This document shows, piece after piece, positions 1 to 64,000 of a stretch of 64,000 nt of DNA. Within the stretch, counting starts at the first letter, position 1, and each line of letters opens with the position of its first letter. Both the position numbers and the translations under genes were made by a program. The DNA is from Gemmatimonadaceae bacterium (lineage in GTDB: Bacteria; Gemmatimonadota; Gemmatimonadetes; Gemmatimonadales; Gemmatimonadaceae), in assembly GCA_035277485.1 (NCBI GenBank), contig DATEKK010000226.1, forward strand, positions 28,740 to 92,739. Direction: 5' to 3'. The notes below the pieces were generated by a model. The model saw only the letters and a program-made list of their open reading frames with translations. It was not told where the DNA came from and did no database searches.

Positions 1-757
1 AGAAATACACCACCATCCCTTTCGTTACGTTAGGCACGATCGCATCCAGGTCTTCCGCCCGCGCGCGCACGCTGCCCGGCATGGTGTACGACGAGTCGTC
101 GAGCGGCCCGTTCGTCGGCAGCGAATAGATCACGGTGCCGCCGTCCAGGACGATTGCCACGGGACCCAGCGCCTTGGTGAGCTTGCGCCGCGCTTCCGGG
201 GGCGGCGCGAGCCCGCGGTCCGTGTACACCCACTCGGGCACCTCCCACGAATCGCTGTCGCTCAGTACCGCCTGCACCGTGCGCGTCCCGCGCGGGACTG
301 CGAGATGCACCGTATCCGGCGGCGTGCCGATGCGGCGCTCCGGTCCCATACGAATGGGAATCGCGCGCAGGAGCGCGCCCTCGCGCTCGAGGTACATGCG
401 ACTGCTGTCCACCGAGATCGCGAGATGAATGTCCTTGCCCCACCGCGCCTGCCGACGGATCAGCTCCATCACCATCTGCATTCGCTTCGTGCGCGAGCTC
501 AGGATCGCATCCGCGCGCTGCCGCTCGGCGTCGTCCATTCCCGCGCGCAGGCGCACCGTTTCTGCCTCGTATCGTCCCCGCTTGTACACGAGCCATCCGT
601 CCAGTGCACAGCAGGCGATGATGATGAGCACGATCGCCGAGAGCAGGCTGGGATGCTTGCGACGAAATTCGGAGAACGTTGGCTTGGGCGGGACAGGCGG
701 CTCGCGCGGGACGAGCCGCCGGATGGACGGATCGTTCGGGATCTGTGGCGATGTCAC
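1..757 (-). CDS. membrane-anchored YkuD/L,D-transpeptidase-fold-like protein (3' end runs off the window start)
   Basis: Absent from the ORF track because it is open at the window edge. My translation from GTG 757..755 gives VTSPQIPNDPSIRRLVPREPPVPPKPTFSEFRRKHPSLLSAIVLIIIACCALDGWLVYKRG (one TM helix) ... GPVAIVLDGGTVIYSLPTNGP...GSVRARAEDLDAIVPNVTKGMVVYF. It has a GTGA overlap with the upstream gene. The fold call is by resemblance only, and the catalytic His/Cys are not evident. Confidence 0.45.
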   Translation of the reverse strand, partial: MTSPQIPNDPSIRRLVPREPPVPPKPTFSEFRRKHPSLLSAIVLIIIACCALDGWLVYKRGRYEAETVRLRAGMDDAERQRADAILSSRTKRMQMVMELIRRQARWGKDIHLAISVDSSRMYLEREGALLRAIPIRMGPERRIGTPPDTVHLAVPRGTRTVQAVLSDSDSWEVPEWVYTDRGLAPPPEARRKLTKALGPVAIVLDGGTVIYSLPTNGPLDDSSYTMPGSVRARAEDLDAIVPNVTKGMVVYF

Positions 758-1857
758 CGGGCTACGATGCTGAGCACGTCGAGTAACGGTACTCCTGAAG
801 GTTCACTGCGTCCTGCGCGCACACGAGCCGTCACCGTGATCGCCGTGAGCGGATCGATGCGTTTGGCTTGATCGACGAGCGATGAGGGCAGAGCCAGATA
901 CAGCAAGGAATTCTCCTGGCCCGGGCCGCGCGCCAAAATGTACGGCTCGTCGGGCGCCATCCCCTTCCGAAGCGGGTCGGCCGTTTCCACGGCGATCTTC
1001 TGCACCACCCAGCGAACCACCTGTCCGCGATAACGATCGGGCTGCGAACGGAGATCGGCCGCGCTGATCGTGGTGAGCACCGTGCTGTCCGATGGACCCA
1101 GATCCTGCGCTCGCACCCACCCTTCGACCTGCACCCGTACCCATCCGCGGTCGCGCGCGACGGCGGTGACCCGCGCGCTCGAATCGATGGTGCCGAGGCT
1201 TCCGGCATCGGGCGCCATGTAGAGCGTGGTGCGCCGAGCGAGCGCCAGCGCGGTCACAGCCTGCGTCGCGCTATCCGGCGTCACATCACCCTCGGCCACG
1301 GCGGTCGTGTCGCCAGATGACTTTGTCGCAGGCGGCGCGTGACGCGCCACTGTCGTCGGGGCCGCGGGAGCCAGTCGCGCGGCCGGCTTCTTTGCGGCCT
1401 CGCGCCGTTTCGAGGCAACGGTAGGTTCGCTCGCGCGCAACGCGCTCGCCATCAACCACCCGGTGCGACGCACCCGGATCCATTCGCCGCGCGTGCTCAC
1501 CTTGGTGAGGCCGCTGCCGTCGGCCATGAGTGCTATCACCCGTCCCGATCGCGAGGGTGTGCTTCTCAGAAATGCGCCGCCGTCGGCATTGACCGAGATC
1601 GAGTAGCTCCCTTGACGCCCGCCGACCACGCTGCGGTGTACATACCCCTCCAGCGTCACCTTCGACCATCCGCGTTGAGTTGTACTCGTCGACACGGATG
1701 CGCCGGACCGCACTTGGGCGACGGCACTGGCGTTGGGCGCGGAGCGCAATGCGGTTTGCGATGTCACCGTGGACTGCGCAACGAGACACACCGGCGCGAG
1801 CATCAGCCCGGCGATCCAACTGGCGTGAATCGCTGGATGGGGCGTGTGAGGGCGCAT
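754..1857 (-). CDS. secreted protein with three bacterial SH3-like repeats
   Basis: ORF 754..1914. The ATG at 1857 precedes a signal-like segment IAGLMLAPVCLVAQS. There are three repeats ending GWSKVTLEGYV, GEWIRVRRTGWL and GWVRVQVEGWV. The start is uncertain. Confidence 0.55.
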   Translation of the reverse strand: MRPHTPHPAIHASWIAGLMLAPVCLVAQSTVTSQTALRSAPNASAVAQVRSGASVSTSTTQRGWSKVTLEGYVHRSVVGGRQGSYSISVNADGGAFLRSTPSRSGRVIALMADGSGLTKVSTRGEWIRVRRTGWLMASALRASEPTVASKRREAAKKPAARLAPAAPTTVARHAPPATKSSGDTTAVAEGDVTPDSATQAVTALALARRTTLYMAPDAGSLGTIDSSARVTAVARDRGWVRVQVEGWVRAQDLGPSDSTVLTTISAADLRSQPDRYRGQVVRWVVQKIAVETADPLRKGMAPDEPYILARGPGQENSLLYLALPSSLVDQAKRIDPLTAITVTARVRAGRSEPSGVPLLDVLSIVAR

Positions 1858-1916
1858 ACATTTTGGTCGGCGCACGGCGCGCCGCAGTATACTCTTAAGT
1901 CTCAACACGGGCAAAG

Positions 1917-3491
1917 ATGGCGACAGAGGGGAAGAAGCGGCCGGTGGTGCTGATAGTCCTCGACGGTTGGGGCTATCGCGCCGAACGCGAAGGGAACGCC
2001 ATCGCGATGGCCCGAACTCCCACCTGGGACGCCCTCTGGAGAGGGCATCCGCGGACCTTGCTCGAGGCCTCGGGTTTGGCCGTGGGACTGCCGCGCGGTC
2101 AGATGGGCAACAGCGAAGTCGGGCATCTCAACTTGGGTGCGGGACGTGTTGTCCCGCAAGACATTGTCCGCATCGACGCCGCTATCCAAAGCGGCGACTT
2201 TTTTCGCAACGAGGTCTTCGTCGATCTCTGTCGCGAAACAAAGAAACGATCCGCTACCCTGCATCTCGTTGGGCTGATCGGCTCGGGCGGCGTGCACGCG
2301 GTCGACCGGCACCTGTTCGCGATCATCGACCTCGCGTCCAAGCTCGAGGTACCTCGCGTGGCCATCCACGCCCTACTCGATGGCCGCGACACCATGCCCC
2401 GCTCCGCACTGCGCTACATGGAGGAGACGCTCACGCACGCGTCGCGTAAAGCGGTGGTCGCATCGTTGGGCGGACGGTACTACGGCATGGATCGCGACAA
2501 GAGGTGGGATCGCACCAAGCTCTGGTACGACGCCATGGCGTTGGGTGTCGGACCGCAGGCCGAAGACCCCGTGGCCGCCATTCGCGCCGCGTACGACCGT
2601 GGCGAAAGCGACGAGTTCGTCAAGCCGGTGGTGATTGCCAAGCACGGCAACCCGGTCGCGCCCATGCGCGATGGCGATGGTGTGATCTTCTTCAACTATC
2701 GGGCAGACCGCATGCGGCAGCTCGTGCGCGCGGTCACGAACCCGGACTTCGACGCCTTCGAGATCGACAAGCGGCCTGCCGTAAACGCCGCGTCGATGAC
2801 GATGTACGATGAGACGTTCACGATTCCGGTCGCATTCCCGCCGCTCGTGCTCTCGCAGATCGTCGCCGAGGTGCTCGCCGAGCACGGACGCACGCAGTTC
2901 CGGACGGCCGAAACCGAGAAGTACGCGCACGTGACCTACTTCTTCAATGGCGGCTTCGAGTCGCCGTATCGCGGTGAAATACGCGAGCTCGTCCCCAGTC
3001 AAAAGGTGGCAACGTACGACCTCGCGCCGGAGATGAGTGCCAAACCCGTGACCGATGTGCTCTGCCGCGCCATTCGGTCGCGCGAACACGATTTCATTCT
3101 GTGCAATTACGCCAACGGCGACATGGTCGGGCACACCGGCGTAATTCCGGCCGCCATCACCGCGGTCGAAACCGTGGACACGTGCTTAGGCCGCGTGCTC
3201 ACGGCAGCCGATGAGGTGGGCGCTCGTCTGATCGTGACCGCCGATCACGGCAACTGTGAAATGATGATCGACCCCGAAACCGGCGGCCCGCACACGGCGC
3301 ACACAACGAACCCGGTTCCGCTCATCGTGATCGACCCCGACGGCGAGCGGCCCTTGCGCGGCGGCGGTGCGTTAGGCGACGTCGGTCCAACGCTGCTCAC
3401 CATGCTCGGCCTCGAGCCGCCGCCCGAAATGACCGGGCGTGACTTGCGGCAGGCGCACTCCCAGACACTTCCTGCAGGAGCTCATCCGTGA
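1917..3491 (+). CDS. gpmI: 2,3-bisphosphoglycerate-independent phosphoglycerate mutase
   Basis: 524 aa. Contains VVLIVLDGWGYR, GQMGNSEVGHLNLGAGR and ADHGNCE motifs typical of iPGM along the full length. Confidence 0.95.
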   Translation: MATEGKKRPVVLIVLDGWGYRAEREGNAIAMARTPTWDALWRGHPRTLLEASGLAVGLPRGQMGNSEVGHLNLGAGRVVPQDIVRIDAAIQSGDFFRNEVFVDLCRETKKRSATLHLVGLIGSGGVHAVDRHLFAIIDLASKLEVPRVAIHALLDGRDTMPRSALRYMEETLTHASRKAVVASLGGRYYGMDRDKRWDRTKLWYDAMALGVGPQAEDPVAAIRAAYDRGESDEFVKPVVIAKHGNPVAPMRDGDGVIFFNYRADRMRQLVRAVTNPDFDAFEIDKRPAVNAASMTMYDETFTIPVAFPPLVLSQIVAEVLAEHGRTQFRTAETEKYAHVTYFFNGGFESPYRGEIRELVPSQKVATYDLAPEMSAKPVTDVLCRAIRSREHDFILCNYANGDMVGHTGVIPAAITAVETVDTCLGRVLTAADEVGARLIVTADHGNCEMMIDPETGGPHTAHTTNPVPLIVIDPDGERPLRGGGALGDVGPTLLTMLGLEPPPEMTGRDLRQAHSQTLPAGAHP

Positions 3492-4186
3492 CGCGTACCT
3501 GCGCGTTCGTTTCGTTAGCCGCACTCGCTGCATTGGCGACGGCGGCGCCGGCGCAGGTCGGATATCCTCCCTCCGCCAGCCCGTATCAGGATTTTTCCAA
3601 CAAGCAGGAGTTCACGCTCTACAGCGGCTATTTCACGGGCGCCACCGGACGCGCCGGCGTCGGACCGCAAGGCGGCGCGATGCTCGGCGTGCGGTACGGG
3701 CTCAAGTTAGGCGGACCGGTGGAGCTCGTCGCGCACGTCGCGCGCGTGTTTACGCAGCGCGACGTCATCTCGCCCGGGTTGCTCGGCCCGGCGCGCGACC
3801 TCGGGAATTTCTCGCTGCCCCTCTACCTGGGCGACGTCGGACTCGCCTTCAACATGACGGGCGCCAAGAGCTGGCATCACCTGATCCCGACGTTCGGATT
3901 TGGCGGCGGTGTCGTGTCCGACGCCGGGACCAACAGGGACGTTGGCGGATTCCGCATCGGAACGCCCTTCGCCATCACGTTCGGGGCGGGCATTCGCTAC
4001 GTGCCCGGCGGCAACTGGTCCGTGCGCGCCGAGCTCGCCGATTACATGTATCAGGCGCAGTATCCCAATTCGTATTTCACCGCGCCGCCCGGCGGCAAAT
4101 CGGTGCTGCCGCCGTCGTCGGCGCAGAACCAGTGGCTCCATAACGGCGCGCTGACGTTAGGCATCTCGTATCTCATCGGCCGCTGA
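3488..4186 (+). CDS. secreted hypothetical protein, possibly an outer-membrane beta-barrel
   Basis: GTG start overlaps the gpmI stop (GTGA). Signal peptide CAFVSLAALAALATAAPAQ. The body is Gly/aromatic-rich with an alternating pattern. No family recognised. Confidence 0.4.
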   Translation: MTRTCAFVSLAALAALATAAPAQVGYPPSASPYQDFSNKQEFTLYSGYFTGATGRAGVGPQGGAMLGVRYGLKLGGPVELVAHVARVFTQRDVISPGLLGPARDLGNFSLPLYLGDVGLAFNMTGAKSWHHLIPTFGFGGGVVSDAGTNRDVGGFRIGTPFAITFGAGIRYVPGGNWSVRAELADYMYQAQYPNSYFTAPPGGKSVLPPSSAQNQWLHNGALTLGISYLIGR

Positions 4187-4202
4187 GGCCGGCTCGTCGC
4201 GC

Positions 4203-4631
4203 ATGCCTGGTTCCAAAGCCCAGCTCAGTCGCCGCGTGGAGTTTGCCGCGGCGCACCGGTACCGGCGCCCCGACTGGAGCGATGAACGCAACCGCGCGGT
4301 GTTCGGCCCGTGCGCGAATCCGAATTTCCACGGGCACGATTATACCTGCACCGTCACCGTCCGCGGCGTAATCGACGAGACCACGGGCATGATCGTGGAT
4401 CTCGGCGCGCTCGATCGCATTCTGGACGACGAAATCACGTCGCGCTTCGACCACCACAACATCAACCTCGACGTGCCCGAGTTCGCCGACGGGCGCCTCG
4501 TCCCGACGGGCGAGAACATCGCGCGATTCATCTTCGAGCGCGTGGAGCCGCGGCTGCCCGCGGGCGTCGAGCTCGTGCGCGTGGACCTCGCCGAGGACGA
4601 CACGCTGTCGGCGACGGTCGACGCGCGTTAG
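4203..4631 (+). CDS. queD: 6-carboxy-5,6,7,8-tetrahydropterin synthase / 6-pyruvoyl-tetrahydropterin synthase family
   Basis: 142 aa. Contains FAAAHRY, CANPNFHGHDY (Cys-x3-His-Gly-His) and TGMIVDLGALD. Confidence 0.85.
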   Translation: MPGSKAQLSRRVEFAAAHRYRRPDWSDERNRAVFGPCANPNFHGHDYTCTVTVRGVIDETTGMIVDLGALDRILDDEITSRFDHHNINLDVPEFADGRLVPTGENIARFIFERVEPRLPAGVELVRVDLAEDDTLSATVDAR

Positions 4632-4638
4632 GCGCATC

Positions 4639-5292
4639 GTGCGCGCCGGCGGCTGCACCGGCGTGATCCTGGCCGGCGGACAGGCGCGCCGCTACGGGGG
4701 CGCGCCGAAAGGACTCGAGCGCATCGGCGGACACCGCATCATCGATCGTGTCGCGCGGGTACTCGCCGCCGCAGCCGATGGGCTGCTGCTCGTCGCCAAC
4801 GATCCAGACGCGGACTCGTGGCTGCCCGGGGTACCCGTCGCCGCCGACGTGCGGCCGGGAAACGGCAGCTTGGGCGGCATACACGCCGCGCTCACCTACG
4901 CCGCGAAACCCGTCCTCGTCGTCGCATGGGACATGCCCTTTGTTCCGGCCGCGCTCCTCGCCGAGCTGCGGACCCTCGGCCGCGGAGCGGACGTCGCCGT
5001 ACCGGAAAGTGCGTCGACGCGTGGTGTCGAGCCGCTGTGCGCGTATTATGATCCAACGTGCATTGGACCCATCGAGCGTCACCTCGACGCGGGCGACCGT
5101 CGTGTCGTCGGATTCTACGATGATGTGCGCGTGGCGAGGATGCCGGATCTCCAAGTCCGGCGCTTCGGCGATCCCGCGCTGATGTTCCTGAACGTGAATT
5201 CCCCGGACGAGCTCGTGCTCGCGGAGCGACATGCCGCACGCATCGACGACGCCGCCGATGGTGGCGATCATCGGACGCAAGCACCACGGTAA
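4639..5292 (+). CDS. mobA: molybdenum cofactor guanylyltransferase
   Basis: GTG start. Contains GVILAGGQARRYGGAPKGLERIGG. Size and position next to mobB fit MobA. Confidence 0.8.
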   Translation: MRAGGCTGVILAGGQARRYGGAPKGLERIGGHRIIDRVARVLAAAADGLLLVANDPDADSWLPGVPVAADVRPGNGSLGGIHAALTYAAKPVLVVAWDMPFVPAALLAELRTLGRGADVAVPESASTRGVEPLCAYYDPTCIGPIERHLDAGDRRVVGFYDDVRVARMPDLQVRRFGDPALMFLNVNSPDELVLAERHAARIDDAADGGDHRTQAPR

Positions 5293-5794
5293 GACGACCC
5301 TCACGGTTCGTCTCGCCGCCGAGCTGCACCGCCGCGGGTATCGCGTGATGACCATCAAGCACGGCTCGCACACCTTCGACATCGACCCCGAAACGACCGA
5401 CACCTACCGCCACTACCACGAGGGACACGCCGAGAAAGTCGCGATGGCGGCGCCGGATAAATTCGCGCTCATCGAACGATGGGTCGCCGAGTTGGATCCG
5501 GAAGAAATCGCGCGCCGCTATATGGCCGACGCGGACATCGTGTTGTGCGAAGGGTTCAAGCAATCAGCGGTACCGAAAATCGAGGTGTTCCGCGCGGCCG
5601 CGGCCAAAGATGAACGCGTGCCGCTGTACGATCCTGCATCGCCGCAGGCTTCCAAGTACCTCGCCATCGTCACCGACACACCAGTCGACGCGCAAAGCGT
5701 GCAGCAAATCTCTTTGGCTGCGCCCGAATGGTTGGAGGCGGTGGTCGATCTCATTGAGCGCCGTGTGATGCGGCGCGGGAGTGATTCTCGATGA
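5258..5794 (+). CDS. mobB: molybdopterin-guanine dinucleotide biosynthesis adapter protein
   Basis: P-loop VAIIGRKHHGKTTL followed by a MobB-like body. An alternative ATG lies at 5231. Either start overlaps the mobA 3' end. Confidence 0.8.
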   Translation: MVAIIGRKHHGKTTLTVRLAAELHRRGYRVMTIKHGSHTFDIDPETTDTYRHYHEGHAEKVAMAAPDKFALIERWVAELDPEEIARRYMADADIVLCEGFKQSAVPKIEVFRAAAAKDERVPLYDPASPQASKYLAIVTDTPVDAQSVQQISLAAPEWLEAVVDLIERRVMRRGSDSR

Positions 5795-7398
5795 AGGTGT
5801 GTCGCATGCCCGCGATGGTCGCGGGACTCGTCGCTCTGGGATGCGCCTCGGGCGGATCCCATCCCAAGCCGGCGCCGCAGCCGGCCGCGCTGCCCGCATC
5901 GCAGATGGCCACGAGCCAGGCGCCGCCGTCGCCCGTCGCCGTGCTGCGCACGAGCATCGATTCGCTCATCGCCGATTCGGTGTTCCGCAACGCGAACTGG
6001 GGCATCCTCATCGTCGACCCGGATCGCGGCGACACACTCTATTCGCACAACGCGGGCAAGTTGTTCATGCCCGCGTCGAACATGAAGGTGATCACCGGGT
6101 CTGTCGCGTTGGCTCAGTTAGGCCCGAACTTTCAGTTCCACACCACGTTCGTGGCCGACGGCCCCGTCTGCGACGGCACCCTGCACGGCGATCTCGTCGT
6201 GAACGGCCGCGGTGATCCGAGCGAAAGCGACGCGATGCGCGGCGACGCGCTGTCCGCGATGCGCGACATCGCCGACTCGCTCCGCGCGCACGGCATCACG
6301 CGCGTCGTCGGACAGGTGCTCAACGGATTCGACGCGTTCCCCGGCCCGACGCTCGGCTACGGCTGGTCATGGGACGACCTCGACGCGTCGTATAGCGCGG
6401 GCGTCGACGAATTGTTCTTCAACGAAGGCGCGGCGCGCGTCTTGATCCGCGGCGCCCGCAACCCCGGCGGCAAAGTGAGCGTCACGGTGTTGCCCACCTC
6501 GCGATATCCCGCCGTGCACGTTGCGGCGATTACCGAGTTTCCGCCCGAGTCGCTCGCGTCGGGCAGCGGCGGTCGTCGTCGGTTCACGCGCATGCAGGGC
6601 GAGCTGCACACGTCGCTCGACACGCTCACGGGATCGGTCACGCTGGCCGGCTGGATCGCACCCGATGCCGTCGACACCATGGACGTGGTGTATCCCGACC
6701 AGAACACGGCGTATCTCGAGGCGCTCCGCGGCGCACTGATCGAGCGAGGCGTGGCGCTCAAGGACGTGAAAGAGCGCAAACGGTTAGGCGGCTGCGGCCA
6801 CGGTGCGCGCGCGACGGAGCCGGTGTCCGACACGCTGTTCACGTATCTCTCGCCGCCTCTCCGCGACGTGCTCCGCGCGATGGCCAAGCCCTCGCAGAAC
6901 CAGATCGCCGAGATCCTGCTGCGCACGATCGGCCTCGAGAAAGCCGGATCAGGCACGGCCGACAGCGGCATCGCCGTCGTGCGCCGTCAACTCCTCGCCT
7001 GGAACGTGCAGCCGGATGGTTTCGTGCAACGCGATGGCAGCGGACTCTCACGCTACGACTATCTCACGCCCGAAACGCTCGTGCGCGTGCTGGCGAGCAT
7101 CCGCAAGGACACCGCGTTCAACGCGTTCTACGACGCGTTGCCCATTGCCGGCGTCGACGGAACGATCGGCAACCGGATGCGCGACACACCGGCACAGGGC
7201 AACGTGCACGCCAAGACCGGATTCGTCGCCAATGCGCGATCGCTCAGCGGCTACGTGACCACCGCCGATGGACACATGCTCATCTTCAGCGCGCTGTGCA
7301 ACAACTGGACGACGTCGGTGCGCGAGATCGAGCGGGTGCAGGATGCGATCGCGGTCGACTTGGCGTCGATGCATCTGGCCGGCGCGACGACGCCCTAG
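5791..7398 (+). CDS. dacB: D-alanyl-D-alanine carboxypeptidase/endopeptidase (PBP4 family, S13)
   Basis: ATGA overlap with mobB. Lipoprotein-like N-terminus. SxxK motif ASNMKVITG, a C-terminal KTGF motif, and PBP4-like length of 535 aa. Confidence 0.85.
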   Translation: MKVCRMPAMVAGLVALGCASGGSHPKPAPQPAALPASQMATSQAPPSPVAVLRTSIDSLIADSVFRNANWGILIVDPDRGDTLYSHNAGKLFMPASNMKVITGSVALAQLGPNFQFHTTFVADGPVCDGTLHGDLVVNGRGDPSESDAMRGDALSAMRDIADSLRAHGITRVVGQVLNGFDAFPGPTLGYGWSWDDLDASYSAGVDELFFNEGAARVLIRGARNPGGKVSVTVLPTSRYPAVHVAAITEFPPESLASGSGGRRRFTRMQGELHTSLDTLTGSVTLAGWIAPDAVDTMDVVYPDQNTAYLEALRGALIERGVALKDVKERKRLGGCGHGARATEPVSDTLFTYLSPPLRDVLRAMAKPSQNQIAEILLRTIGLEKAGSGTADSGIAVVRRQLLAWNVQPDGFVQRDGSGLSRYDYLTPETLVRVLASIRKDTAFNAFYDALPIAGVDGTIGNRMRDTPAQGNVHAKTGFVANARSLSGYVTTADGHMLIFSALCNNWTTSVREIERVQDAIAVDLASMHLAGATTP

Positions 7399-7399
7399 C

Positions 7400-8650
7400 A
7401 TGCTGTCCGTCGCCGAGGCCGCCGCACGCATCATCGCCGACATCGCTCCGTTAGGCGCCGAGCGCGTCGCGCTGCTCGATTCGTTAGGCAGGGTGCTGGC
7501 GGCCCCGGTCCGGTCGCCGCTCACCCTGCCGGCGTGGGACAACTCGGCCATGGATGGCTACGCGGTCCGTGCGGATGACGTGCGCGACGCGCGCCCCGAC
7601 GCGCCGGTTTCGCTGCGCGTGCTCGAGACCGTGGCCGCAGGCGCCTTCCCGTCGCATCGCGTCGACACCGGTACGGCCACGCGCATCATGACCGGCGCGC
7701 CGATACCGGATGGCGCTGATGGCGTGATCCGCATCGAGGACACCGACGGCGGCACGGCGCACGTCGCCATCCGCGACGCGCGCGACGCGGGCCGCAACGT
7801 CAGGCACCGCGGCGAGGACATTGCCGCGGGCAGCACGGTGTTCGAGCGCGGGCAGCCGGTCGGCCCCGCGCAGGTGGGCGTCCTCGCGTCGATCGGCGCC
7901 GCCACCGTGGATGTGTACCGCCGCCCGCGGGTCGCGTTCTTCGGCTCGGGCGACGAGATCGTGGATCTCGATGGCCTGCCCGACGCCGTGGCCGGCCGCA
8001 AGGTCCTCACGTCCAACAGCTACACGCTCCACGCGATGATCCGCGCCGCCGGCGCCGAGCCGTTGAACCTGGGGCTCGCGCGCGATGACCCGGGCGAGCT
8101 GCGCGACCGCATCGCGCGCAGCACCGGCTGCGATCTGCTCATCACGTCGGCCGGCATCTCCGCGGGCGCGTTCGACTACGTGCGCGATGTGCTTACTGAG
8201 TTAGGCGTCGAGATGACCGTGTGGAGGGTGCGGATGCGGCCCGGCGCCCCGCTCGGCTTCGGGTGGCTGGGCAACCGGCCCTGGATCGGCCTGCCCGGCA
8301 ACCCGGTGTCGACCATGGTCACCTTCGAGTTGTTCGTGCGGCCCATGTTGCTCCGGATGCTCGGCCATACGCGCATCTACCGGCGTCCGGTGACGGTCAC
8401 GCTCGAGGAACCGATGACGATTACCGGTGCGCTCACGCACTTCCTGCGCGGCATCGTCACCGTCGCCGGAGACGGGACCATGACCGCGCGCCTGTCGGGA
8501 CCGCAAGGCTCGGGCGTGCTCACGTCGATGGCCCGGGCCAACGCGCTGCTCGTCATCCCCGAAGACCGCCCGCGCGTCGAGGCCGGCGAATCGGTGCACG
8601 CGCTGCTGCTCGGCGAAGACGCACAGTCGAGCGCCGTCTTCGCCCTGTGA
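7400..8650 (+). CDS. moeA: molybdopterin molybdenumtransferase
   Basis: Start taken at MLSVAEAAARI, 2 nt after the dacB stop; the ORF-track start at 7268 is an over-extension. Typical MoeA domains are present (PAWDNSAMDGYAV, SGDEI, GNPVS). Confidence 0.9.
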   Translation: MLSVAEAAARIIADIAPLGAERVALLDSLGRVLAAPVRSPLTLPAWDNSAMDGYAVRADDVRDARPDAPVSLRVLETVAAGAFPSHRVDTGTATRIMTGAPIPDGADGVIRIEDTDGGTAHVAIRDARDAGRNVRHRGEDIAAGSTVFERGQPVGPAQVGVLASIGAATVDVYRRPRVAFFGSGDEIVDLDGLPDAVAGRKVLTSNSYTLHAMIRAAGAEPLNLGLARDDPGELRDRIARSTGCDLLITSAGISAGAFDYVRDVLTELGVEMTVWRVRMRPGAPLGFGWLGNRPWIGLPGNPVSTMVTFELFVRPMLLRMLGHTRIYRRPVTVTLEEPMTITGALTHFLRGIVTVAGDGTMTARLSGPQGSGVLTSMARANALLVIPEDRPRVEAGESVHALLLGEDAQSSAVFAL

Positions 8651-52490: not shown

Positions 52491-52564
52491 GGCCGGAAAG
52501 ATAGCCCGAAGCCATGTCGGGTGCTGGCTGCCCGACGCCGGGAGGAGCCGGCGCTTAGCGGAAG

Positions 52565-52972: not shown

Positions 52973-53024
52973 ACTGCCATCCGGGTGCAAGAAAGGAGCC
53001 GTCCACGGGTGCAAAGAAGCGTGG

Positions 53025-57835: not shown

Positions 57836-58282
57836 TCAGTGTATGGTCACGTTTTCGCCGCCCAGGCCGTCGTCCATGTAGCCCGCGCCCTCCATCAGGA
57901 CGCGCAAGTCGTCCAGGGCGATTCGGCCATCGATCTGGCTGAGAGCACGTTCGATGACATGTTCGAGCTCCACAGCGTTGAGCATGCCGGCGCCGCTCAT
58001 CGATATGAGGTGCCCCCACGCATCGGGGGTGAAGCGGCCCCGTTCATGAGGCCCAAGCACGCGAAAAGTCATTGTTCGAGGTACCGGATCGGGAAACCTC
58101 TCCGCCAAATGATTCAGCAAAATCGGGGCGGCGACCGGGTAATGCCGTGTCGAAATCCAACGAGTTGAATCTTCTTGTTGCGAGGCCAGAATCAGCTGTA
58201 GCGCTTCCGCCCTCGGCCTATACACGGGATCCAGCCGTTGGGTCGACGAGGCGAGCAATTTGTACTGCAAGTGATTCAACAT
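57836..58282 (-). CDS. smg: Smg-like protein (DUF494)
   Basis: FRVLGPHERGRFTPDAWGHLISMSGAGMLNAVELEHVIERALSQIDGRIALDDLRVLM matches my recollection of the E. coli Smg core (RIYTPEE..L....GFL..LEQ..VL....E.VIERVL......EL.DLK). It sits immediately upstream of topA. Start could be TTG 58300, ATG 58282 or GTG 58225. Confidence 0.55.
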   Translation of the reverse strand: MLNHLQYKLLASSTQRLDPVYRPRAEALQLILASQQEDSTRWISTRHYPVAAPILLNHLAERFPDPVPRTMTFRVLGPHERGRFTPDAWGHLISMSGAGMLNAVELEHVIERALSQIDGRIALDDLRVLMEGAGYMDDGLGGENVTIH

Positions 58283-58745
58283 CAACGAGATTGGTGTCAA
58301 TGGCGTAGTCAGCCTGACGGTAGGCTGGCTCCCGCTGCTGAGCCAGTCGTCGTAGAACCTCGACCGGCTCCGGATCCTCCAGGAGGGGCCGCTTCGTGCG
58401 ACCCGCCCCCATCCTTAGTATTGCGACTTCGGGGGCGACCCGGAGGTAAATCATACGCGCCGGCGGACGCAATAGTGCCAGCGCCCCTGGAACCATAACC
58501 CAACCGCCTCCCGGTGCCAAAATGGCACTATCTGATCTAGCGAGCTCTTGCGTGAGGCTGAGCTCCAAGCGACGGAAGTAAGTTTCCCCGTGCGCCCGAA
58601 AGATCTCGCCGATTGTCATACCGGCGCGGCGCTCGAGCTCATCATCGAAGTCCAGGAACCGGCGCCCAAGCCGTGAGGCCACCAGCCGTCCGACCGACGA
58701 TTTACCGGCTCCCGGCAAGCCTACGAGAATGACGTGGGCGATCAC
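58218..58745 (-). CDS. aroK: shikimate kinase
   Basis: GTG start. Contains VILVGLPGAGKSSVGR, FLDFDDELERRAG, FRRLE and LAPGGG. Confidence 0.9.
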   Translation of the reverse strand: MIAHVILVGLPGAGKSSVGRLVASRLGRRFLDFDDELERRAGMTIGEIFRAHGETYFRRLELSLTQELARSDSAILAPGGGWVMVPGALALLRPPARMIYLRVAPEVAILRMGAGRTKRPLLEDPEPVEVLRRLAQQREPAYRQADYAIDTNLVDVESLAVQIARLVDPTAGSRV

Positions 58746-58791
58746 TGGCTGACACTCATCACTCGCGTTCGCCGTGTCGACGCTTCACGCC

Positions 58792-59997
58792 TCACGGCCT
58801 CGTGATGCGCGAGCCGATGGCCGCGACATACCCATCGTAGTTGCGTCGCACCTCGCCTAACGAATCGCCGCCGAACTTCTCGAGAAAAGCCTGCGCGAGC
58901 ACAAACGCCGCCATCGCCTCGGCGATCACGCCCATGGCGGGGACCGCAGTCACGTCGGATCGTTCGGCGACGGCCTGCGCGGACTCGCCCGTGGCGACGT
59001 CGATCGTTTGAAGCGGGCGCATGAGCGTGCTGATCGGTTTCATGCCCACCCGGATGACTAACGGCTCGCCCGTCGTGATACCTCCCTCGAGTCCGCCGGC
59101 GCGATTCGTTAGGCGGTGCACGTTGCCCGTTTTCGGACGTCCAGGCGGCGCCGCCATCTCGATCTCGTCGTGCGATTCGGCACCCGTGCGATGCGCCGTC
59201 TCGAAGCCGAGGCCGATCTCGACGGCCTTTACCGCCGGAATCGACATCAGCGCCGCAGCGAGCCGTCCGTCGAGTTTGCGCTCCCACGAGATGTGCGAGC
59301 CAAGGCCAACGGGGATTCCATCGCACACCACCTCGCAGATGCCACCCAGCGTATTCCCTTCGCGCTTCACCGCATCGATGCGCTCGATCATTCGATTTGC
59401 CGCTGCGGGATCGAGCGTGCGGAGTGGTGATTGGTCGGCTACCGCGTTGATGTCATCGGGAAAAGGATCAGGTCGTTGGGCATCGATGCCGCCCAAGTGG
59501 ACGACGTGGCTGGCAATGCGAACGCCGAATTCGCGCAGGAAGATGCGACAGACTGCTCCAGCAGCAACACGGGCGGCGGTCTCACGGGCGGACGCGCGCT
59601 CGAGAATGTCGCGCGCATCGCTGCGGTCGTACTTGAGCATGCCCGAGAGATCCGCGTGGCCTGGACGAGGCCTCGTGACAACTCGCTTCCGTGGCGCGGG
59701 ATCACCATCGTGCACCGCGGGATCCATGATCTCCTGCCAGTTCTTCCAGTCGCGGTTGGCAATGAGCATCGCGATCGGAGAGCCAATCGTCGCGCCAGCT
59801 CGCACGCCCGACAGCAACTCGGCCGCGTCCTTTTCGATTTGCATGCGCCGGCCACGGCCGTAGCCTTGTTGGCGGCGCATGAGATCGACGTTGACATCCG
59901 CGGCGGAAATCGGGAGGCCGGCGGGCATACCCTCGAGAATGCAAACGAGAGCTGGCCCGTGTGATTCGCCGGCGGTTGTAAAGCGAAGGAGTGGCAA
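58792..59997 (-). CDS. aroC: chorismate synthase
   Basis: Contains LRFTTAGESHGPALV, GRRMQIE and SARETAARV. I prefer TTG 59997 (MPLLRFTT); the track uses GTG 60069. Confidence 0.9.
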   Translation of the reverse strand: MPLLRFTTAGESHGPALVCILEGMPAGLPISAADVNVDLMRRQQGYGRGRRMQIEKDAAELLSGVRAGATIGSPIAMLIANRDWKNWQEIMDPAVHDGDPAPRKRVVTRPRPGHADLSGMLKYDRSDARDILERASARETAARVAAGAVCRIFLREFGVRIASHVVHLGGIDAQRPDPFPDDINAVADQSPLRTLDPAAANRMIERIDAVKREGNTLGGICEVVCDGIPVGLGSHISWERKLDGRLAAALMSIPAVKAVEIGLGFETAHRTGAESHDEIEMAAPPGRPKTGNVHRLTNRAGGLEGGITTGEPLVIRVGMKPISTLMRPLQTIDVATGESAQAVAERSDVTAVPAMGVIAEAMAAFVLAQAFLEKFGGDSLGEVRRNYDGYVAAIGSRITRP

Positions 59998-60169: not shown

Positions 60170-62659
60170 CTAGTTCTGCGGGCAATTCGCGAGGAGTTGC
60201 GCCTGTGTGACGGTGGCGATGACGACACCGAATTGTGTCGCACCGACAAGGATGACGTTGCCCGACGCGTCCTTCCCCGCCCTGATCGGTCCAATGACCG
60301 GATCCCTCGTGGGAAGGATCATGCAGCGACTGAACCGGTACGTGTCATAGACTTCGATTTGTGGCGATGACGAGGCCGCGAAGGCGAGTCGTGTTCCCGG
60401 CGGCGACGAGCTACCACCGATACCGGTGTTGTCCGGCTGGAAATCGAACCCAGCGTTACCGGCCGACGTTTGCAACAAGCCTTGGAGCCGAAGTGTGCGA
60501 TCGATGATGTAAGTGGAATCGCCTCGGATCGCCGCCAGAGCGCCGTCGAAGTTGATGGCCGCGCTGCCGACCCGCGCGAACGAGTTCGCGATGAAGTCGG
60601 AGACCTCGACCGCGGGAGAGATGCCGTTGTCGACTGCAGGCACGGGCGCCGTAAAGGTGCCCAGTGCGTTAGTAAACGTGGTTTGGAAACCGGCGCTGTC
60701 ATCGTACATGATGGCGCGGCTGCCCTGCACCGCTCCGCCTTCGCCGATCACGGCTCGACGGAAGTTACCCGAGTTGCGCACGAAGGTCGTGTCGCGGAAC
60801 GCCAGGTTGGCGATCTGCACTACTATGGAATAGCCGATCGAGTCCGAAGCCGAACCGAATTGACGGAACGGCACGAGCGCGGTGTCGGCTCCGACACCCT
60901 GTGCAGCGTGACGGTCGATTTCGAGTGTGTCGCTCCGGCCGTCCGACTGACCCATCGCCTGCTCGAAGAAGAAGTGCGACGTGTGCTGGGTCAAATTCTC
61001 CCAACGAACAGTGCCCTGGTTTTGGAACGGCAACGTCTGTCCGGGTGTCGGCGTCGTCGAGTAGAGCAGCACAACGTCGCCGCATGGCGCGACCCCCGAG
61101 GCCGGGCCCAAGCAGGTCGCAGCAAGGAACTGCGGACGTTCACTGAAATCGTGCTGCGTCTTGTTCTCGATAACCTGTCCCGTTGTCTTCGAAATGGTAG
61201 ACGTGACCGTGAAGACATCGATCTCGGGGAGCGGGTAGCGGAACACTTCTTGGTCCGCGTTACCCTGGACGTTCACGTAGCTGATGTTCGTGCCGCCTGA
61301 ATTCGCGACGAGGATCGTGTCGCCCATCGTGCCGTCGCGATTCGCCGGCCAGGCGGCCAGGCCCCACGGCTGCGATCCGACAGGAATCGGCGCTTGGAAC
61401 GCGGAGTCGGTGAGGTCGAACACCTCGAGCTCGTTCTTCGCGATATTGCTCATGTACAGCCGGTTAGTCGGCTTGTGGAACAATGCGTCGGCAATCACGC
61501 CGCCCAGAGGCAGATTGCGCGTTAGGCCGGCGACGACCGTCACCGTATCGCCCCGTGGCGTGACGTTGTCACTGAGCAGCGCATATGCGCGCGTGCCGCC
61601 GTTGTTGCGCGCGAATCCGAAGACCTGCACCTGCTTCGGGAAGGTCGTGATGTTGAGGTTCAGCCTGAACGTGTGCAGCGCCGAGCTCACGTTGCCCGAT
61701 ACCTGGAACGAATCCGTCGAGAAGAACGTGTTCGGGTCGCTCGGCAGATTGCGCACTTCGTATCCGAGCCAGCGGACGCCACTGCGATCGTGAGCGCTCA
61801 CGTGCATCGTGTCGGTGACTTCGATGCGCGGCGTGATCCCGAAGTCGACGACCGGGATGCTGTTACCGGACACCGAATTGGAAACCACCACGTTGACCGG
61901 GACGCCGAGTACTCGCCGCTTGAGCGAATCCATGAGGAACGGCGTGAGCGTGAGCGTTCCCGTTGTCGCACCTACCAAGCTCAACGCGGTGTCGACACCG
62001 ACGGAGTCTTTGAGCGGCGAGTTGAAGAGCACCGAGTCGGTGACCGGCGTGGCGAACACACCGCTGGCAATGAAGCCAAGGGCCTTCACCAAGCTTGGGC
62101 TCTTGCCACTGAGTGAGACGGCCATGGTGAAGCCGACGACTGCTGTGTCGGTCGACTTCGGATTCGTAATGATCGCGACCGATGGTGACTGATTGCCGGT
62201 GCCGATGAACGCGGTGTCTGGCCTGGACACGTTGTGCGCGCCGTCGATCGCCGACGCTATGACCGTGACGGTCGTGCCAGGCGGTACGGTGGACGGAACC
62301 GGAACGGTGTACGGCAGCGTCACGTTAGTCACGGCGCTGGTGAACGTGGTGTCGAACGTGCCGCTGATGCCGGGGCCGGCGACACTCACGCGCACATTGA
62401 GCAAGCCGAGATTGTCGGTCGCGACGACATTGAACGCGACGACGGAGTCGGCCGTCGCCGCAGCCGCCGTGATCGAGACGACGGGCGGCGTGGAGTCGGC
62501 GATGACACCGCCACCGGCGCCATTGCCTTCGACGCAGGCCGCGGCGAAGACGATCGCGGCCAGAGCAAGCACACCGCCGGCGAGGCGGCCCGCGTGCGCC
62601 GGCGTGCCGGCGCGCGCGAGGAGAGAAGTGCGCGCGAGGCGCGCCAGGGTCCGCGTCAT
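60170..62659 (-). CDS. large lipoprotein with Ig-like N-terminal repeats and beta-propeller-like C-terminal part
   Basis: ATG 62659 lies 13 nt after the pilQ stop. Lipobox-like AAIVFAAC. Contains TPPVVSITAA...FNVVATDNLGLLNVRV (Ig-like), then LYMSNIAKNELEVFDL and ILVANSGGTNISYVNV (propeller-like). No family recognised. Confidence 0.5.
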   Translation of the reverse strand: MTRTLARLARTSLLARAGTPAHAGRLAGGVLALAAIVFAAACVEGNGAGGGVIADSTPPVVSITAAAATADSVVAFNVVATDNLGLLNVRVSVAGPGISGTFDTTFTSAVTNVTLPYTVPVPSTVPPGTTVTVIASAIDGAHNVSRPDTAFIGTGNQSPSVAIITNPKSTDTAVVGFTMAVSLSGKSPSLVKALGFIASGVFATPVTDSVLFNSPLKDSVGVDTALSLVGATTGTLTLTPFLMDSLKRRVLGVPVNVVVSNSVSGNSIPVVDFGITPRIEVTDTMHVSAHDRSGVRWLGYEVRNLPSDPNTFFSTDSFQVSGNVSSALHTFRLNLNITTFPKQVQVFGFARNNGGTRAYALLSDNVTPRGDTVTVVAGLTRNLPLGGVIADALFHKPTNRLYMSNIAKNELEVFDLTDSAFQAPIPVGSQPWGLAAWPANRDGTMGDTILVANSGGTNISYVNVQGNADQEVFRYPLPEIDVFTVTSTISKTTGQVIENKTQHDFSERPQFLAATCLGPASGVAPCGDVVLLYSTTPTPGQTLPFQNQGTVRWENLTQHTSHFFFEQAMGQSDGRSDTLEIDRHAAQGVGADTALVPFRQFGSASDSIGYSIVVQIANLAFRDTTFVRNSGNFRRAVIGEGGAVQGSRAIMYDDSAGFQTTFTNALGTFTAPVPAVDNGISPAVEVSDFIANSFARVGSAAINFDGALAAIRGDSTYIIDRTLRLQGLLQTSAGNAGFDFQPDNTGIGGSSSPPGTRLAFAASSSPQIEVYDTYRFSRCMILPTRDPVIGPIRAGKDASGNVILVGATQFGVVIATVTQAQLLANCPQN

Positions 62660-62672
62660 GGGTCGCTCTCGG

Positions 62673-64000
62673 TCAGCGGTCGCCGCCGGGCGCACCGATG
62701 GCGTCACCGTCGTCGACAATGTGTGGGGTGACCAGGATCAGGAGATCCGTCTTGTCTTCCTGGGTCCGCGTCTCACCGAACAGCTTGCCGATGAAGGGGA
62801 GATCGACCAGGAGCGGAATACCGGACTTCGACTGTTGAACCTGCGTTGTCGTTAGGCCGCCAATGACCGCGGTCTCGCCGTCGCCCACGAGCAGCTCGTT
62901 GTCCGCGCTCTGCTTGAGGAACGTGTAGCCGAGGTCCGACGCAGCGGGTTGGAGCTGCGAGCGCTCCGCGTGCAGCGTCATGAGGATCTTGCGGTTGTTC
63001 GTGATGTGGGGCGTCACCTTGAGGATGATACCGGTCTCCTTGAACTGCACCGTGGCGCGCGGCGCCGTGGCTCCCGTACCGCCCTGGCTGAGCGAGCCGA
63101 GGTCGACGATACGAATCGGCGTCTCTTCACCCGACAGGATCTGCGCTTCGCGGTTGTCGAGCGTGACGATGCTGGGCTCCGCCTCGACGTCCGACAAACG
63201 GACTTCCTGCAGCCCATCGAGGAACGCCGTGAGGTTGAACTTGCCTAACGCGGTCGAGAAGATGAGGGACAACGCGGGGTCGACCACGCGCTGCGTGGCG
63301 TTCGAAATCGCCGCGAGCGAGTTGCCGCCGATGTTGATGACCTGTGTGTTGGACGGGAACGGCGTTCCGACGACGGCGTCGGGCACACCATCGCCGTTCG
63401 AGTCGATCGGCTTGAAGGTGCTCGGGTCGGTACGCTGCACGAGCTTATTGAAGAACGTGCCGTTGTCGCCCAGGTCATAGCTCACGCCGATGTCCTGGAT
63501 GTTCGTGCGATCGACGAGAATGATCTTGGTCTTGATCGAGACCTGCGGCGTGCGAACGTCGAGGTCCTTCACGTAGTTGGCGATTTCCTCGAGACGCGAC
63601 GGCACATCGGTCACGAGCAACCGGTTCGTGCCGGAGTCCGCGGTCACATCACCGCGCGTCTTGCACTCCGTGCTGCCGGTCGCGCCGTTCGGACCGGCTG
63701 CGCCCGGAGGGCAATCCTTGGAGAGCAGGCTCTTCACCGTGGAAACGAGCGAGCTCGCGCGGGCGTAGTTCACCGAGATGATGCGGGTCTGCACTGGTTC
63801 GGTGGCTTGCTGCTTGGCAATGTTCTCGTAGCTGTCGACGGAAATGATGCCGTCGGCGTCTTCTTTGGCGGCGTAGCCCTGCGACGACAGGATTGCGCGT
63901 AAGGCGACGTCCCAGGGTTGATCGCGAACTTCGGCGGAGACGTTTCCCGTCACGCCTTTGCCCGCGACGATCGTCCGGCCGGAGAAGACGGCGAAGCCTG
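62673..64000 (-). CDS. pilQ: type IV pilus secretin PilQ (5' end beyond the window)
   Basis: The frame stays open to nt 64000 (..IVAGKGVTGNVSAEVRDQPWDVALRAIL). N domains are followed by a secretin core (VEAEPSIVTLDNREAQI, ILKVTPHIT, GGLTTT...SGIPLLVDLPFIGKLF, LLILVTPHIV). Confidence 0.85.
   Translation of the reverse strand, partial: GFAVFSGRTIVAGKGVTGNVSAEVRDQPWDVALRAILSSQGYAAKEDADGIISVDSYENIAKQQATEPVQTRIISVNYARASSLVSTVKSLLSKDCPPGAAGPNGATGSTECKTRGDVTADSGTNRLLVTDVPSRLEEIANYVKDLDVRTPQVSIKTKIILVDRTNIQDIGVSYDLGDNGTFFNKLVQRTDPSTFKPIDSNGDGVPDAVVGTPFPSNTQVINIGGNSLAAISNATQRVVDPALSLIFSTALGKFNLTAFLDGLQEVRLSDVEAEPSIVTLDNREAQILSGEETPIRIVDLGSLSQGGTGATAPRATVQFKETGIILKVTPHITNNRKILMTLHAERSQLQPAASDLGYTFLKQSADNELLVGDGETAVIGGLTTTQVQQSKSGIPLLVDLPFIGKLFGETRTQEDKTDLLILVTPHIVDDGDAIGAPGGDR

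Follow-up and report, generated by a model that had tools for sequence, protein, structure and literature searches.

The heptamer GTTAGGC as a possible DNA-uptake-type self tag in a lineage of Gemmatimonadaceae

The DNA uptake sequence (DUS) of Neisseriaceae (GCCGTCTGAA and its dialects, read by the minor pilin ComP) and the uptake signal sequence (USS) of Pasteurellaceae (Hin-type AAGTGCGGT and Apl-type ACAAGCGGT) occur in 1,892 and 1,471 copies per genome, respectively (PMC2817400). Such sequences show a reading-frame bias (PMC2817400; 10.1101/2025.10.24.684340) and lie at poorly conserved residues (PMC2817400). According to a 2025 survey, uptake self tags are established only in these two proteobacterial families (10.1101/2025.10.24.684340); highly iterated palindrome 1 (HIP1) of cyanobacteria is a debated third case. 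Here, a 64-kb stretch of contig DATEKK010000226.1 from an uncultured soil Gemmatimonadaceae bacterium (referred to below as the window, meaning the whole stretch analysed) was studied with respect to the dispersed heptamer GTTAGGC. No prior report of this word was found in the literature; it is a hyper-abundant, self-tag-like word in a new phylum, and its distribution is unusually patchy. The reading favoured for it, with a probability of roughly 45%, is that of a DNA-uptake-type self tag of this lineage.

Exact counting gave 77 copies of GTTAGGC/GCCTAAC in the window, 34 on the plus strand and 43 on the minus strand, and 80 copies of the hexamer TTAGGC/GCCTAA (36 and 44, respectively). Both totals agree with those of an initial annotation of this DNA, as do the three hexamers without the leading G at 3186, 32064 and 41609. 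Most of the positions listed in that annotation were also correct; five were shifted by 1-10 nt (the correct positions are 30 for 40, 13735 for 13734, 41805 for 41815, 53935 for 53934 and 10826 for 10825), and the number of GTTAG pentamers, estimated there as about 105, was 108. The octamer CGTTAGGC was present in 50 copies (23 plus and 27 minus). GTTAGGC was the top-ranked heptamer and CGTTAGGC the top-ranked octamer of the window (z of about 50).

The G+C content of the window was 65.9%. Under a zero-order model, 7.5 copies of GTTAGGC were expected, in line with the figure of about seven given initially, and Markov models of the first, second and third order predicted 2.4, 2.2 and 9.1 copies, respectively. 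Shuffling of synonymous codons within each gene, which is a conservative null because every TTA codon is kept, yielded 9.2 +/- 1.8 copies with a maximum of 14 in 200 shuffles. When codons were redrawn from motif-free usage with the proteins fixed, approximately 0.1 coding copies were obtained, compared with the 70 observed. The observed number was thus far above both codon-aware expectations. Among 420 permutations having the base composition of GTTAGGC, the median count was 6 and the runners-up were overlapping shifts of the word itself; other words of the same composition were therefore not equally frequent. The over-representation amounted to 35-fold by the second-order model and to more than 100-fold by the codon-aware one. 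Therefore, the excess proposed initially was real, but its estimate of about ten-fold was too low. A maximal-order Markov expectation was dropped, since the signal is taken up by sub-words of the motif and the expectation is then uninformative; orders 0-3 were used together with the codon-aware nulls. The one-off form GTTGGGC was 2.3-fold enriched in the window. The enrichment continued beyond the window, since 7 further copies were found in the 5.9 kb adjoining its right end and many more in relatives, as described below.

A sequence logo of the 77 copies showed a sharp 7-bp core, with C at position -1 in 65% of the copies, as had been noticed before, and G or A at position +7 in 77%. It had been supposed that the base after GGC was never T; in fact, T was found at +7 in 6 of the 77 copies. 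A weak T at position -3 of the window logo was absent from the copies of related genomes, and the logo contained no other information within 12 nt on either side of the word. Because conserved flanks were lacking, GTTAGGC is not part of a longer repeat, a miniature inverted-repeat transposable element (MITE) or an RNA element. Likewise, the features of MITEs and of repetitive extragenic palindromic sequences (a longer unit, a mostly intergenic location and a structure) were not found, the flanks being unconserved and 70 of the 77 copies being genic. Scans of the window for Rfam families, tRNAs and tandem repeats returned nothing related to the word.

Fifty-five genes were called in the window by a self-trained codon model and named with Pfam and NCBIfam. 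By these calls, 70 copies were genic and 7 intergenic, instead of the six copies assigned to spacers previously, and the density was 1.2 per kb both in the 58.1 kb of coding and in the 5.9 kb of non-coding DNA. Two of the six reading frames of the word carry a stop codon (TAG or TAA) and are unusable within genes. In the other frames, its occurrence depended on codon opportunity: sense xxG-TTA-GGC (Leu-Gly) filled 47 of the 154 places permitted by the protein sequence (30%), antisense xxG-CCT-AAC (Pro-Asn) filled 11 of the 17 x-Pro-Asn places (65%), antisense xGC-CTA-ACx (Leu-Thr) filled 11 of the 24 [CGRS]-Leu-Thr places (46%), and sense GTT-AGG-C (Val-Arg) filled 1 of 51 (2%). The excess of sense over antisense genic copies (48 to 22) was due to the fact that Leu-Gly is far commoner than Pro-Asn or Leu-Thr, and it does not reflect a strand preference; the two antisense frames were in fact more saturated than the main sense frame.

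The effect of the word on codon usage was considerable. Among the 65 TTA codons of the window, 56 were preceded by G and 49 were followed by GGC (47 of the latter in the motif), and TTA-GGC encoded one quarter of all Leu-Gly dipeptides. DNA-level pressure overrides codon preference: codon usage is reshaped by GTTAGGC, because of which three quarters of the TTA codons exist, and protein sequences are altered too. The dipeptides encoded by the motif were conserved in 38% of comparisons with motif-negative relatives, compared with 68% for the same dipeptides free of the motif (these comparisons are not independent of one another). Therefore, it may be concluded that GTTAGGC sits at, or creates, variable residues.

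The spacing of the copies was Poisson-like (coefficient of variation 0.97; largest gap 4,160 nt, P = 0.37), and regular spacing was thereby ruled out. The copies nearest to each other formed direct pairs inside genes, at distances of 18, 33 and 42 nt. The ratio of same-strand to antisense copies was 16:7 in plus-strand genes and 32:15 in minus-strand genes (Fisher p = 1.0). GC skew was steadily negative over 8-44 kb of the window. Replication-strand polarity of GTTAGGC was not found in this single 64-kb window, which contains neither origin nor terminus. A pattern like that of FtsK-orienting polar sequences (KOPS) or of architecture-imparting skewed octamers was not found in the window, the 34:43 split between the strands being explained by coding frame.

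The distribution of the word among relatives was studied in two samples. HslU of the window matched only metagenome-assembled genomes of Gemmatimonadota, the best match being 94% identical (Gemmatimonadaceae SMAG_U8809). The first sample consisted of 80 species-level representatives around hslU; the word was enriched in 7 of them and at chance level, mostly zero, in 73. The enriched loci carried 18 copies in 21 kb (L001), 14 in 21 kb (L007), 11 in 21 kb (L011), 8 in 10 kb (L022), 7 in 21 kb (L003), 3 in 12 kb (L012) and 2 in 5 kb (L040). The second sample consisted of JGI metagenome contigs around a different locus, the gene of electron transfer flavoprotein-ubiquinone oxidoreductase (ETF-QO). 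All 8 contigs with 89-92% protein identity (L085-L092, from soil) had 1.15-1.5 copies per kb, with 117 copies in 86.9 kb, and 72 contigs at 73% ETF-QO identity or less were not enriched in the word (about 0). In a tree built from six proteins (2,789 columns), the motif-positive genomes fell into four clades. Motif-positive metagenome-assembled genomes include SMAG_U8809 (DATEHK01), STL-GEM2 (JAXLXW01, which has a 987-kb contig), SMAG_U8534, SMAG_U8786 and SRP302447_co4_277; SMAG_U1501 (DASUKA01) and SMAG_U2275 (DASTSH01) are sisters that are negative.

Sites of the window were then mapped onto the relatives via protein alignments. In motif-negative genomes, none of 481 orthologous positions carried the word, and 206 of these positions keep the same amino acids; in motif-positive genomes, 16 of 65 orthologous positions carried it. 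For example, the Ser-Pro-Asn of HslU is invariant in the 73 negative genomes, and its proline codon there is CCC or CCG and in no case CCT. At the Val-Arg-Gln site of argF, GTTAGGCAG is found in three of the four motif-positive clades, and GTGCGGCAG and the like in the 58 negative genomes. Recent transfer of patches among the positive clades was considered as a source of such shared sites and is unlikely, given that the flanks of the argF, topA and hslU sites have diverged like the rest of each gene. Considering the saturation of the antisense frames (46-65% versus 30%), the equal intergenic density and the lack of the word at sites with identical amino acids in the 73 negative relatives, the initial view of GTTAGGC as a DNA-level signal and not a protein feature held.

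Motif sites were also kept between related positive genomes more often than expected. In comparison with L001, 10 of 14 motif sites were kept, as against 17-25% of ordinary heptamers and 57% identity at third codon positions. Across L085-L092, 80 of 113 motif sites (71%) were kept, compared with 30-45% for ordinary heptamers. Conservation of sites between genomes beyond background, which is a property of HIP1, was thus found for GTTAGGC in both comparisons. The non-motif alleles were mostly one transition away from the word, namely GTTGGGC (TTA/TTG) in 20 cases and GTCAGGC (CTA/CTG) in 11 cases. The signal is DNA-level, symmetric, lineage-specific, actively maintained and costly.

The word has also spread to phages. 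IMG/VR was scanned for two copies of CGTTAGGC lying 5-35 nt apart, and at least three high-GC contigs with many copies were present among the matches listed. IMGVR_UViG_3300025917_000032 (L292) contained 41 copies of GTTAGGC in 31.9 kb, with 1.8 expected, and represents a temperate tailed phage with genes for an integrase, a replication protein, small and large terminase subunits, a portal protein, a protease-capsid protein and tail proteins. IMGVR_UViG_3300037722_000485 (L285) contained 18 copies in 21.5 kb, with 1.1 expected, and the word was its top heptamer. Its replication genes form a self-contained module and encode a helicase, two exonucleases, a Gp2.5-like single-stranded DNA-binding protein, a family-A DNA polymerase and a primase; an integrase gene was not found within these 21.5 kb. 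The third contig, IMGVR_UViG_3300020577_002214 (L187), had six copies, all of them within 3 kb (2527-5430) of its 10.4 kb and none in the other 7.5 kb, which suggests that the motif-bearing part is a mosaic segment acquired from a motif-rich genome; genes for a terminase and a DNA polymerase are present on this contig as well. The orientation of the word was mixed in the first two contigs (28:13 and 10:8, respectively), and the phage copies were dispersed, without a cluster near the packaging end. When the DNA polymerase and the terminase of the phages were used as queries against viral contigs, only the same contigs and distant low-GC phages devoid of the motif were returned.

Several other genes of these contigs were recorded. 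In L292, the integrase gene adjoins and overlaps a gene predicted to encode an N6/N4 DNA methyltransferase (889-2693). L285 encodes two pentapeptide-repeat proteins (505-1353 and 2751-3395) and a polyvalent protein of 1,245 amino acids with an ADP-ribosyltransferase domain (17747-21481). The pentapeptide-repeat proteins may be DNA mimics, and together with the polyvalent protein they suggest anti-defence functions.

A comparison with the known systems was made on this basis. Like USS, GTTAGGC is found about once per kb, on either strand, is mostly genic, uses few frames, lies at poorly conserved residues (PMC2817400), is absent from related taxa lacking the system and builds up in temperate phages (PMC6776037). 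Like DUS, it is hyper-abundant, non-palindromic, independent of orientation and maintained between related genomes, and type IV pilus genes are present. Thus, the over-representation at about one copy per kb, the presence of both orientations without polarity in this one 64-kb window and the use of few frames at poorly conserved residues are those of an uptake sequence. Enrichment in phages was at one point taken as evidence against an uptake tag; this argument was dropped because temperate phages of Pasteurellaceae accumulate USS up to host-like levels (PMC6776037). Among the four candidates named in the initial annotation, an uptake sequence fits best, since density, symmetry, frame bias, poorly conserved residues and accumulation in a temperate phage all match and a type IV pilus is present; the footprint of a repair or modification system is still a live candidate, and a Chi-like hotspot fails on polarity within the window.

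If GTTAGGC is an uptake tag, its form would be GTTAGGC, usually CGTTAGGC followed by a purine, in either orientation, with roughly one copy in every 0.8 kb. The word would be written into genes, via rare synonymous codons and sometimes via amino-acid changes, by a force that acts on the DNA itself, and this force would most likely be the one known for DUS of Neisseriaceae and USS of Pasteurellaceae. A DNA receptor on the cell surface, belonging to an uptake machine of the type IV pilus kind, would prefer fragments bearing the word, such fragments would be recombined into the chromosome more often, and the word would accumulate over time by molecular drive. Transformation would then be biased toward DNA of the same lineage. 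This scheme presumes that an uptake receptor recognises the word and that these bacteria are naturally transformable.

A number of observations weigh against the uptake tag. The four positive clades came together in none of 100 bootstraps and any two of them were paired in at most 2 of 100, and in all 100 the motif-negative genome L004 fell within the clade to which the window belongs. The word is identical across all four non-sister clades, and its distribution does not follow host phylogeny; this patchy pattern would better fit a horizontally mobile enzyme. Dialects of uptake sequences follow phylogeny (PMC3630211), and USS has two of them, whereas one and the same word is found here. Variants tracking host phylogeny were not seen in the six-protein tree, and no dialects were detected, in that after masking of tandem repeats no other sampled locus had a dispersed heptamer of comparable strength. 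About half of the DUS and USS copies are located in terminators, DUS largely as inverted pairs (10.1101/2025.10.24.684340); terminator-like inverted pairs of GTTAGGC were not found, all 7 intergenic copies being single. The word is unrelated in sequence to USS and DUS and belongs to another phylum. It is only 7-8 bp long, which is shorter than the 10-12 nt of DUS, and has no flanking structure; the 9-nt core AAGTGCGGT or ACAAGCGGT of USS with its AT-rich flanks has no counterpart, because information in the logo ends at -1 and +7. A further difference listed for DUS is that horizontally acquired regions of Neisseria are DUS-poor (PMC2397512). The phage contig IMGVR_UViG_3300037722_000485 may be lytic, and if so, uptake and recombination would hardly account for the number of copies in it. 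Finally, the full-text literature searched contained nothing linking GTTAGGC, uptake sequences, uptake, binding or transformation data or natural competence to Gemmatimonadota.

The pilus genes of the window have a place on both sides of the balance. A minor-pilin operon on the minus strand (45023-49340) encodes GspH/FimT-like, PilV-like, PilW-like and PilX-like proteins with prepilin-type hydrophobic N-termini and weak Pfam and NCBIfam matches (N_methyl, GspH and PilX_N). The 3' part of the PilQ secretin gene, also on the minus strand (62676-63998), matches Pfam Secretin and Secretin_N; pilM, pilN, pilO, a fourth gene and the 5' part of pilQ lie just past the right end of the window in the gene table of L081, which is identical to the window in the overlap. 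A pilin-like protein of 291 amino acids is encoded upstream of pilM. The initial annotation tentatively connected the pilus genes with the word. Homologues of the minor pilins and the secretin are also present in motif-negative relatives (pilins in L041, L031, L065 and L068), and for this reason the pilus genes do not explain the distribution of the word. The GspH/FimT-like pilin gave only generic matches to pilin N-termini in a sequence search of PDB, with no solved DNA-receptor pilin among them, and nothing in NCBIfam; no ComP-like receptor was identified by sequence among these pilins, and a ComP-read dialect of GCCGTCTGAA is not what the core GTTAGGC represents. Thus, the connection between motif and pilins can only be surmised and finds no support in the comparisons. 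Genes comEA, comEC and dprA were not found within the approximately 70 kb examined (the window and its extension), which is a fraction of the genome.

The next most probable explanation, although it is rather unlikely, is a word resembling HIP1 (GCGATCGC), i.e., a horizontally acquired DNA methyltransferase with nicking or mismatch-repair activity would recognise GTTAGGC, and biased repair or selection for dense sites would ratchet the word up in any intracellular DNA, phages included. The sharp 7-bp core without flanks resembles the recognition site of an enzyme, the same word in four unrelated clades and none in their sisters is what a mobile gene would give, and two phage contigs have a host-like density, with an N6/N4 DNA methyltransferase gene on one of the two. 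HIP1 is 15-300-fold over-represented (at least 35-fold is found here), is written in by codon choice, is conserved between genomes beyond background, is patchy among lineages and has a link to orphan methyltransferases (PMC5861425, PMC4390886); one proposal for its origin is a mismatch-repair ratchet that depends on methylation (PMC4390886). However, HIP1 is a palindrome tied to two orphan methyltransferases, whereas GTTAGGC is asymmetric and no methyltransferase or nuclease is tied to it; profile searches found no DNA methyltransferase in the window, the sole methyltransferase there being of a generic small-molecule type. Moreover, the word lies two or three A/T-ward changes away from common codons in a genome with 66% G+C, which would be hard to achieve by a single-mismatch repair bias, and known repair biases such as very short patch repair give far smaller enrichments. 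More recently, a role in transformation has been argued for HIP1 (10.1101/2024.09.10.611283; 10.64898/2026.06.24.733823), so that the present explanation may merge with that of an uptake tag. A related proposal, which is unlikely, is that GTTAGGC is a strand-symmetric self mark unconnected with uptake and recognised by a nuclease, defence or repair module that spreads horizontally; a lineage acquiring the module would be forced to saturate its chromosome with the word, and phages would adopt the mark so as to be taken for self. Such a module would jointly explain the identity of the word in four clades, its total absence in sisters and its host-level density in the phage contig with replication and pentapeptide-repeat genes.

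The remaining explanations have less in their favour. It is quite improbable that the word acts as Chi (GCTGGTGG and its analogues, read by RecBCD/AddAB) or another marker by which a helicase-nuclease or defence system spares DNA or channels it into recombinational repair, with selection for many copies in the chromosome and in phages that depend on or evade that enzyme. GTTAGGC is short, exact, non-palindromic and the most over-represented oligomer, as Chi would be; lactococcal Chi, like GTTAGGC, is built against the compositional grain, and horizontal replacement of a nuclease could give a patchy distribution. Phages using the host enzyme can be enriched in Chi, strongly so in the case of RecBCD-reliant lambdoid phages (PMC3784561, PMC12315714), and the phages found here carry the word. 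However, leading-strand polarity defines Chi (10.1101/2020.08.13.249359), whereas orientation in this one 64-kb window is set only by gene strand and coding frame, alike in plus- and minus-strand genes, and is mixed in both phages. The density and the enrichment also exceed those of Chi in Escherichia coli, with about one copy per 5 kb (10.1101/2020.08.13.249359), and dispersed phage copies differ from the packaging-end clusters of Chi-rich lambdoids (PMC3784561). An abundant, lineage-specific nucleoid-associated or chromosome-organising protein that binds GTTAGGC is very unlikely. The word is genome-wide, independent of orientation and uniform in density, its sites are conserved above background, and the periodicity of HIP1 has led to the proposal that it acts in the nucleoid (PMC5861425). 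Nevertheless, spacing is random at the kb scale, enrichment in phages has no obvious rationale under this explanation and a candidate protein is lacking. To our knowledge, no nucleoid protein imposes an exact heptamer at 1 per kb when this demands rare codons and amino-acid changes. A feature of translation or of the RNA, such as the codon pair TTA-GGC or an RNA motif, would agree with the sense orientation of 48 of the 70 genic copies, 47 of them in one frame. Considering that the antisense frames are more saturated, that intergenic and genic densities are equal, that the commonness of Leu-Gly accounts for the sense excess and that no Rfam family matched, this explanation is effectively refuted by the frame and intergenic counts and has next to no probability left.

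If GTTAGGC is a true uptake tag, kin-directed gene exchange would be far more widespread than the two families suggest and would extend to a dominant soil phylum without known competence. If the protein reading the word is not an uptake receptor, the phenomenon would represent new biology of self-recognition. The on/off pattern among sister genomes provides a clean comparative design for finding this protein. With the word as a simple marker, contigs and phages could be assigned to these hosts, two phage contigs having been found from the word alone.

The individual copies, each an exact match, are given below with the strand of the word and the base at -1. Copies in the sense Leu-Gly frame were found on the plus strand in iPGM (3371-3377, C), an outer-membrane-protein-like open reading frame (ORF) (3706-3712, A; 4156-4162, C), the S13 peptidase (6117-6123, A; 6783-6789, G), MoeA (7450-7456, C; 7483-7489, C; 8200-8206, A), CstA (17173-17179, T; 17443-17449, C; 18163-18169, C), the S9 peptidase (18692-18698, C), the MoxR ATPase (33183-33189, T) and the AAA_16 ATPase (37527-37533, G; 38652-38658, G; 38988-38994, A). 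Those on the minus strand were located in ETF-QO (10238-10244, C; 10346-10352, C; 10610-10616, G; 10826-10832, C; 10868-10874, C), EtfA (11774-11780, A), the acyl-CoA dehydrogenase (12989-12995, T), the metallophosphoesterase (15124-15130, C; 15142-15148, C; 15457-15463, C), the beta-propeller protein (22523-22529, C), DUF885 (23676-23682, C; 23751-23757, T), the HMGL-like protein (24521-24527, T; 24680-24686, C), the nucleotidyltransferase (26824-26830, C; 27646-27652, G), AtpF (29350-29356, T), AtpE (29659-29665, T), the Ser/Thr kinase (33704-33710, T; 34193-34199, G; 34259-34265, C), the HD-GYP-like protein (39198-39204, C; 39270-39276, C; 39543-39549, C), the sigma-54 activator (42566-42572, G), GcvT (44094-44100, A), XerC (53382-53388, C), TopA (56076-56082, C; shared with L001, L007 and L011), AroC (58855-58861, C) and the PilQ secretin (63243-63249, C).

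Copies in the antisense Pro-Asn frame were found on the plus strand in an unknown ORF (29-35, C), the nucleotidyltransferase (26977-26983, C), the HD-GYP-like protein (40128-40134, A), the sigma-54 activator (41804-41810, C), GcvT (44415-44421, C), HslU (51726-51732, T) and XerC (53934-53940, C), and on the minus strand in the S9 peptidase (19373-19379, 20045-20051 and 20270-20276, C in each) and the M20 peptidase (26181-26187, C). Those in the antisense Leu-Thr frame all had C at -1; on the plus strand they were located in the acyl-CoA dehydrogenase (13734-13740), the beta-propeller protein (22293-22299), AtpB (30768-30774), the PilV-like protein (48575-48581), TrmFO (54204-54210), AroC (59108-59114), an unknown ORF of 849 amino acids (61521-61527) and the PilQ secretin (62851-62857), and on the minus strand in the S9 peptidase (18898-18904 and 20815-20821) and the AAA_16 ATPase (38318-38324). 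The single sense Val-Arg copy is that of ArgF (49981-49987, minus, G), a site shared with L001, L003, L022 and L040. Between called genes, copies were located on the minus strand at 20997-21003 (G), 29778-29784 (A), 33360-33366 (A) and 35803-35809 (C), and on the plus strand at 43720-43726 (C) and, in the spacer between hslU and argF, at 50425-50431 (C). The copy at 4627-4633 (plus, C) lies at the end of the gene for 6-pyruvoyl-tetrahydropterin synthase, which uses the TAG of the word (4629-4631) as its stop codon.

ENA and Logan contigs from soil metagenomes, up to 145.6 kb in length, carry the same sequence and match the window exactly in the overlaps. Near-identical contigs are numerous, with the same AroC protein present in 56 index blocks. 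A look-up of the exact iPGM protein for an extension to the left gave no match, probably owing to a differing start-codon call. The PilX-like and PilW-like genes (45026-48159; 3.1 kb, 62% G+C) contained no copy of the motif, with about 3.7 expected, and rank with the least conserved genes in this part of the window. The gap is compatible with faster turnover or later acquisition and is not significant on its own (P = 0.37 for the largest gap).

Other words were noted in the window and its relatives. The one-off variant GTTAGTC had 12 dispersed copies in the window, 2.9-fold above the codon-aware null, and was the only enriched variant in the motif-negative locus L057 (4 copies, 0.16 expected); this form may have weak activity or represent a dialect in the making. 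In L056 (164-21140), CATTGAC was present in 10 copies, with 0.5 expected, dispersed and all on one strand, and may be a different, polar word of another Gemmatimonadaceae lineage. AGGAACT was about 10-fold above the second-order expectation in L007, L042, L052, L055 and L063 (8-11 copies per 14-21 kb); it is probably driven by peptides or codons, most instances being GAG-GAA-CTC-like. The words CGGGACT, GTCAGGG, ACGAGTA, ACCTAGC, AGCGGGA and GGGCTAGT, considered as alternatives in motif-negative relatives, were rejected, as they formed local tandem heptamer arrays and were not dispersed. Indeed, many Gemmatimonadaceae loci contain short intergenic arrays of 7-8-nt tandem repeats whose unit differs from lineage to lineage (CGGGACT, GGGGTCA, ACGAGTA, ACCTAGC, AGCGGGA and GGGCTAGT). 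Such arrays were located in L002 (981-1130 and 3263-3300), L005 (2371-2480 and 4054-4145), L021 (5-60 and 207-220), L046 (1209-6694), L070 (9249-9375 and 15714-15735) and L080 (114-140 and 2212-2260). Often, there are two inverted arrays about 100 nt apart; a weaker analogue in the window is an inverted pair of 2 x 17-nt repeats (21223-21257 with 21394-21428) between the S9 peptidase and beta-propeller genes.

No confident gene call was made, and no Rfam match found, in 52482-53027 (about 0.5 kb, between hslV and xerC), where one assembly annotates an ORF of 135 amino acids, or in 58001-58794 (about 0.8 kb, between aroC and the DUF494 gene). The ATP synthase cluster on the minus strand (28265-31475) consists of atpI-like, atpB, atpE, atpF and atpH genes and is followed by cupin and nucleotidyltransferase genes. 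Because the genes for the alpha, gamma, beta and epsilon subunits do not follow atpH, the ATP synthase operon is split in this genome.

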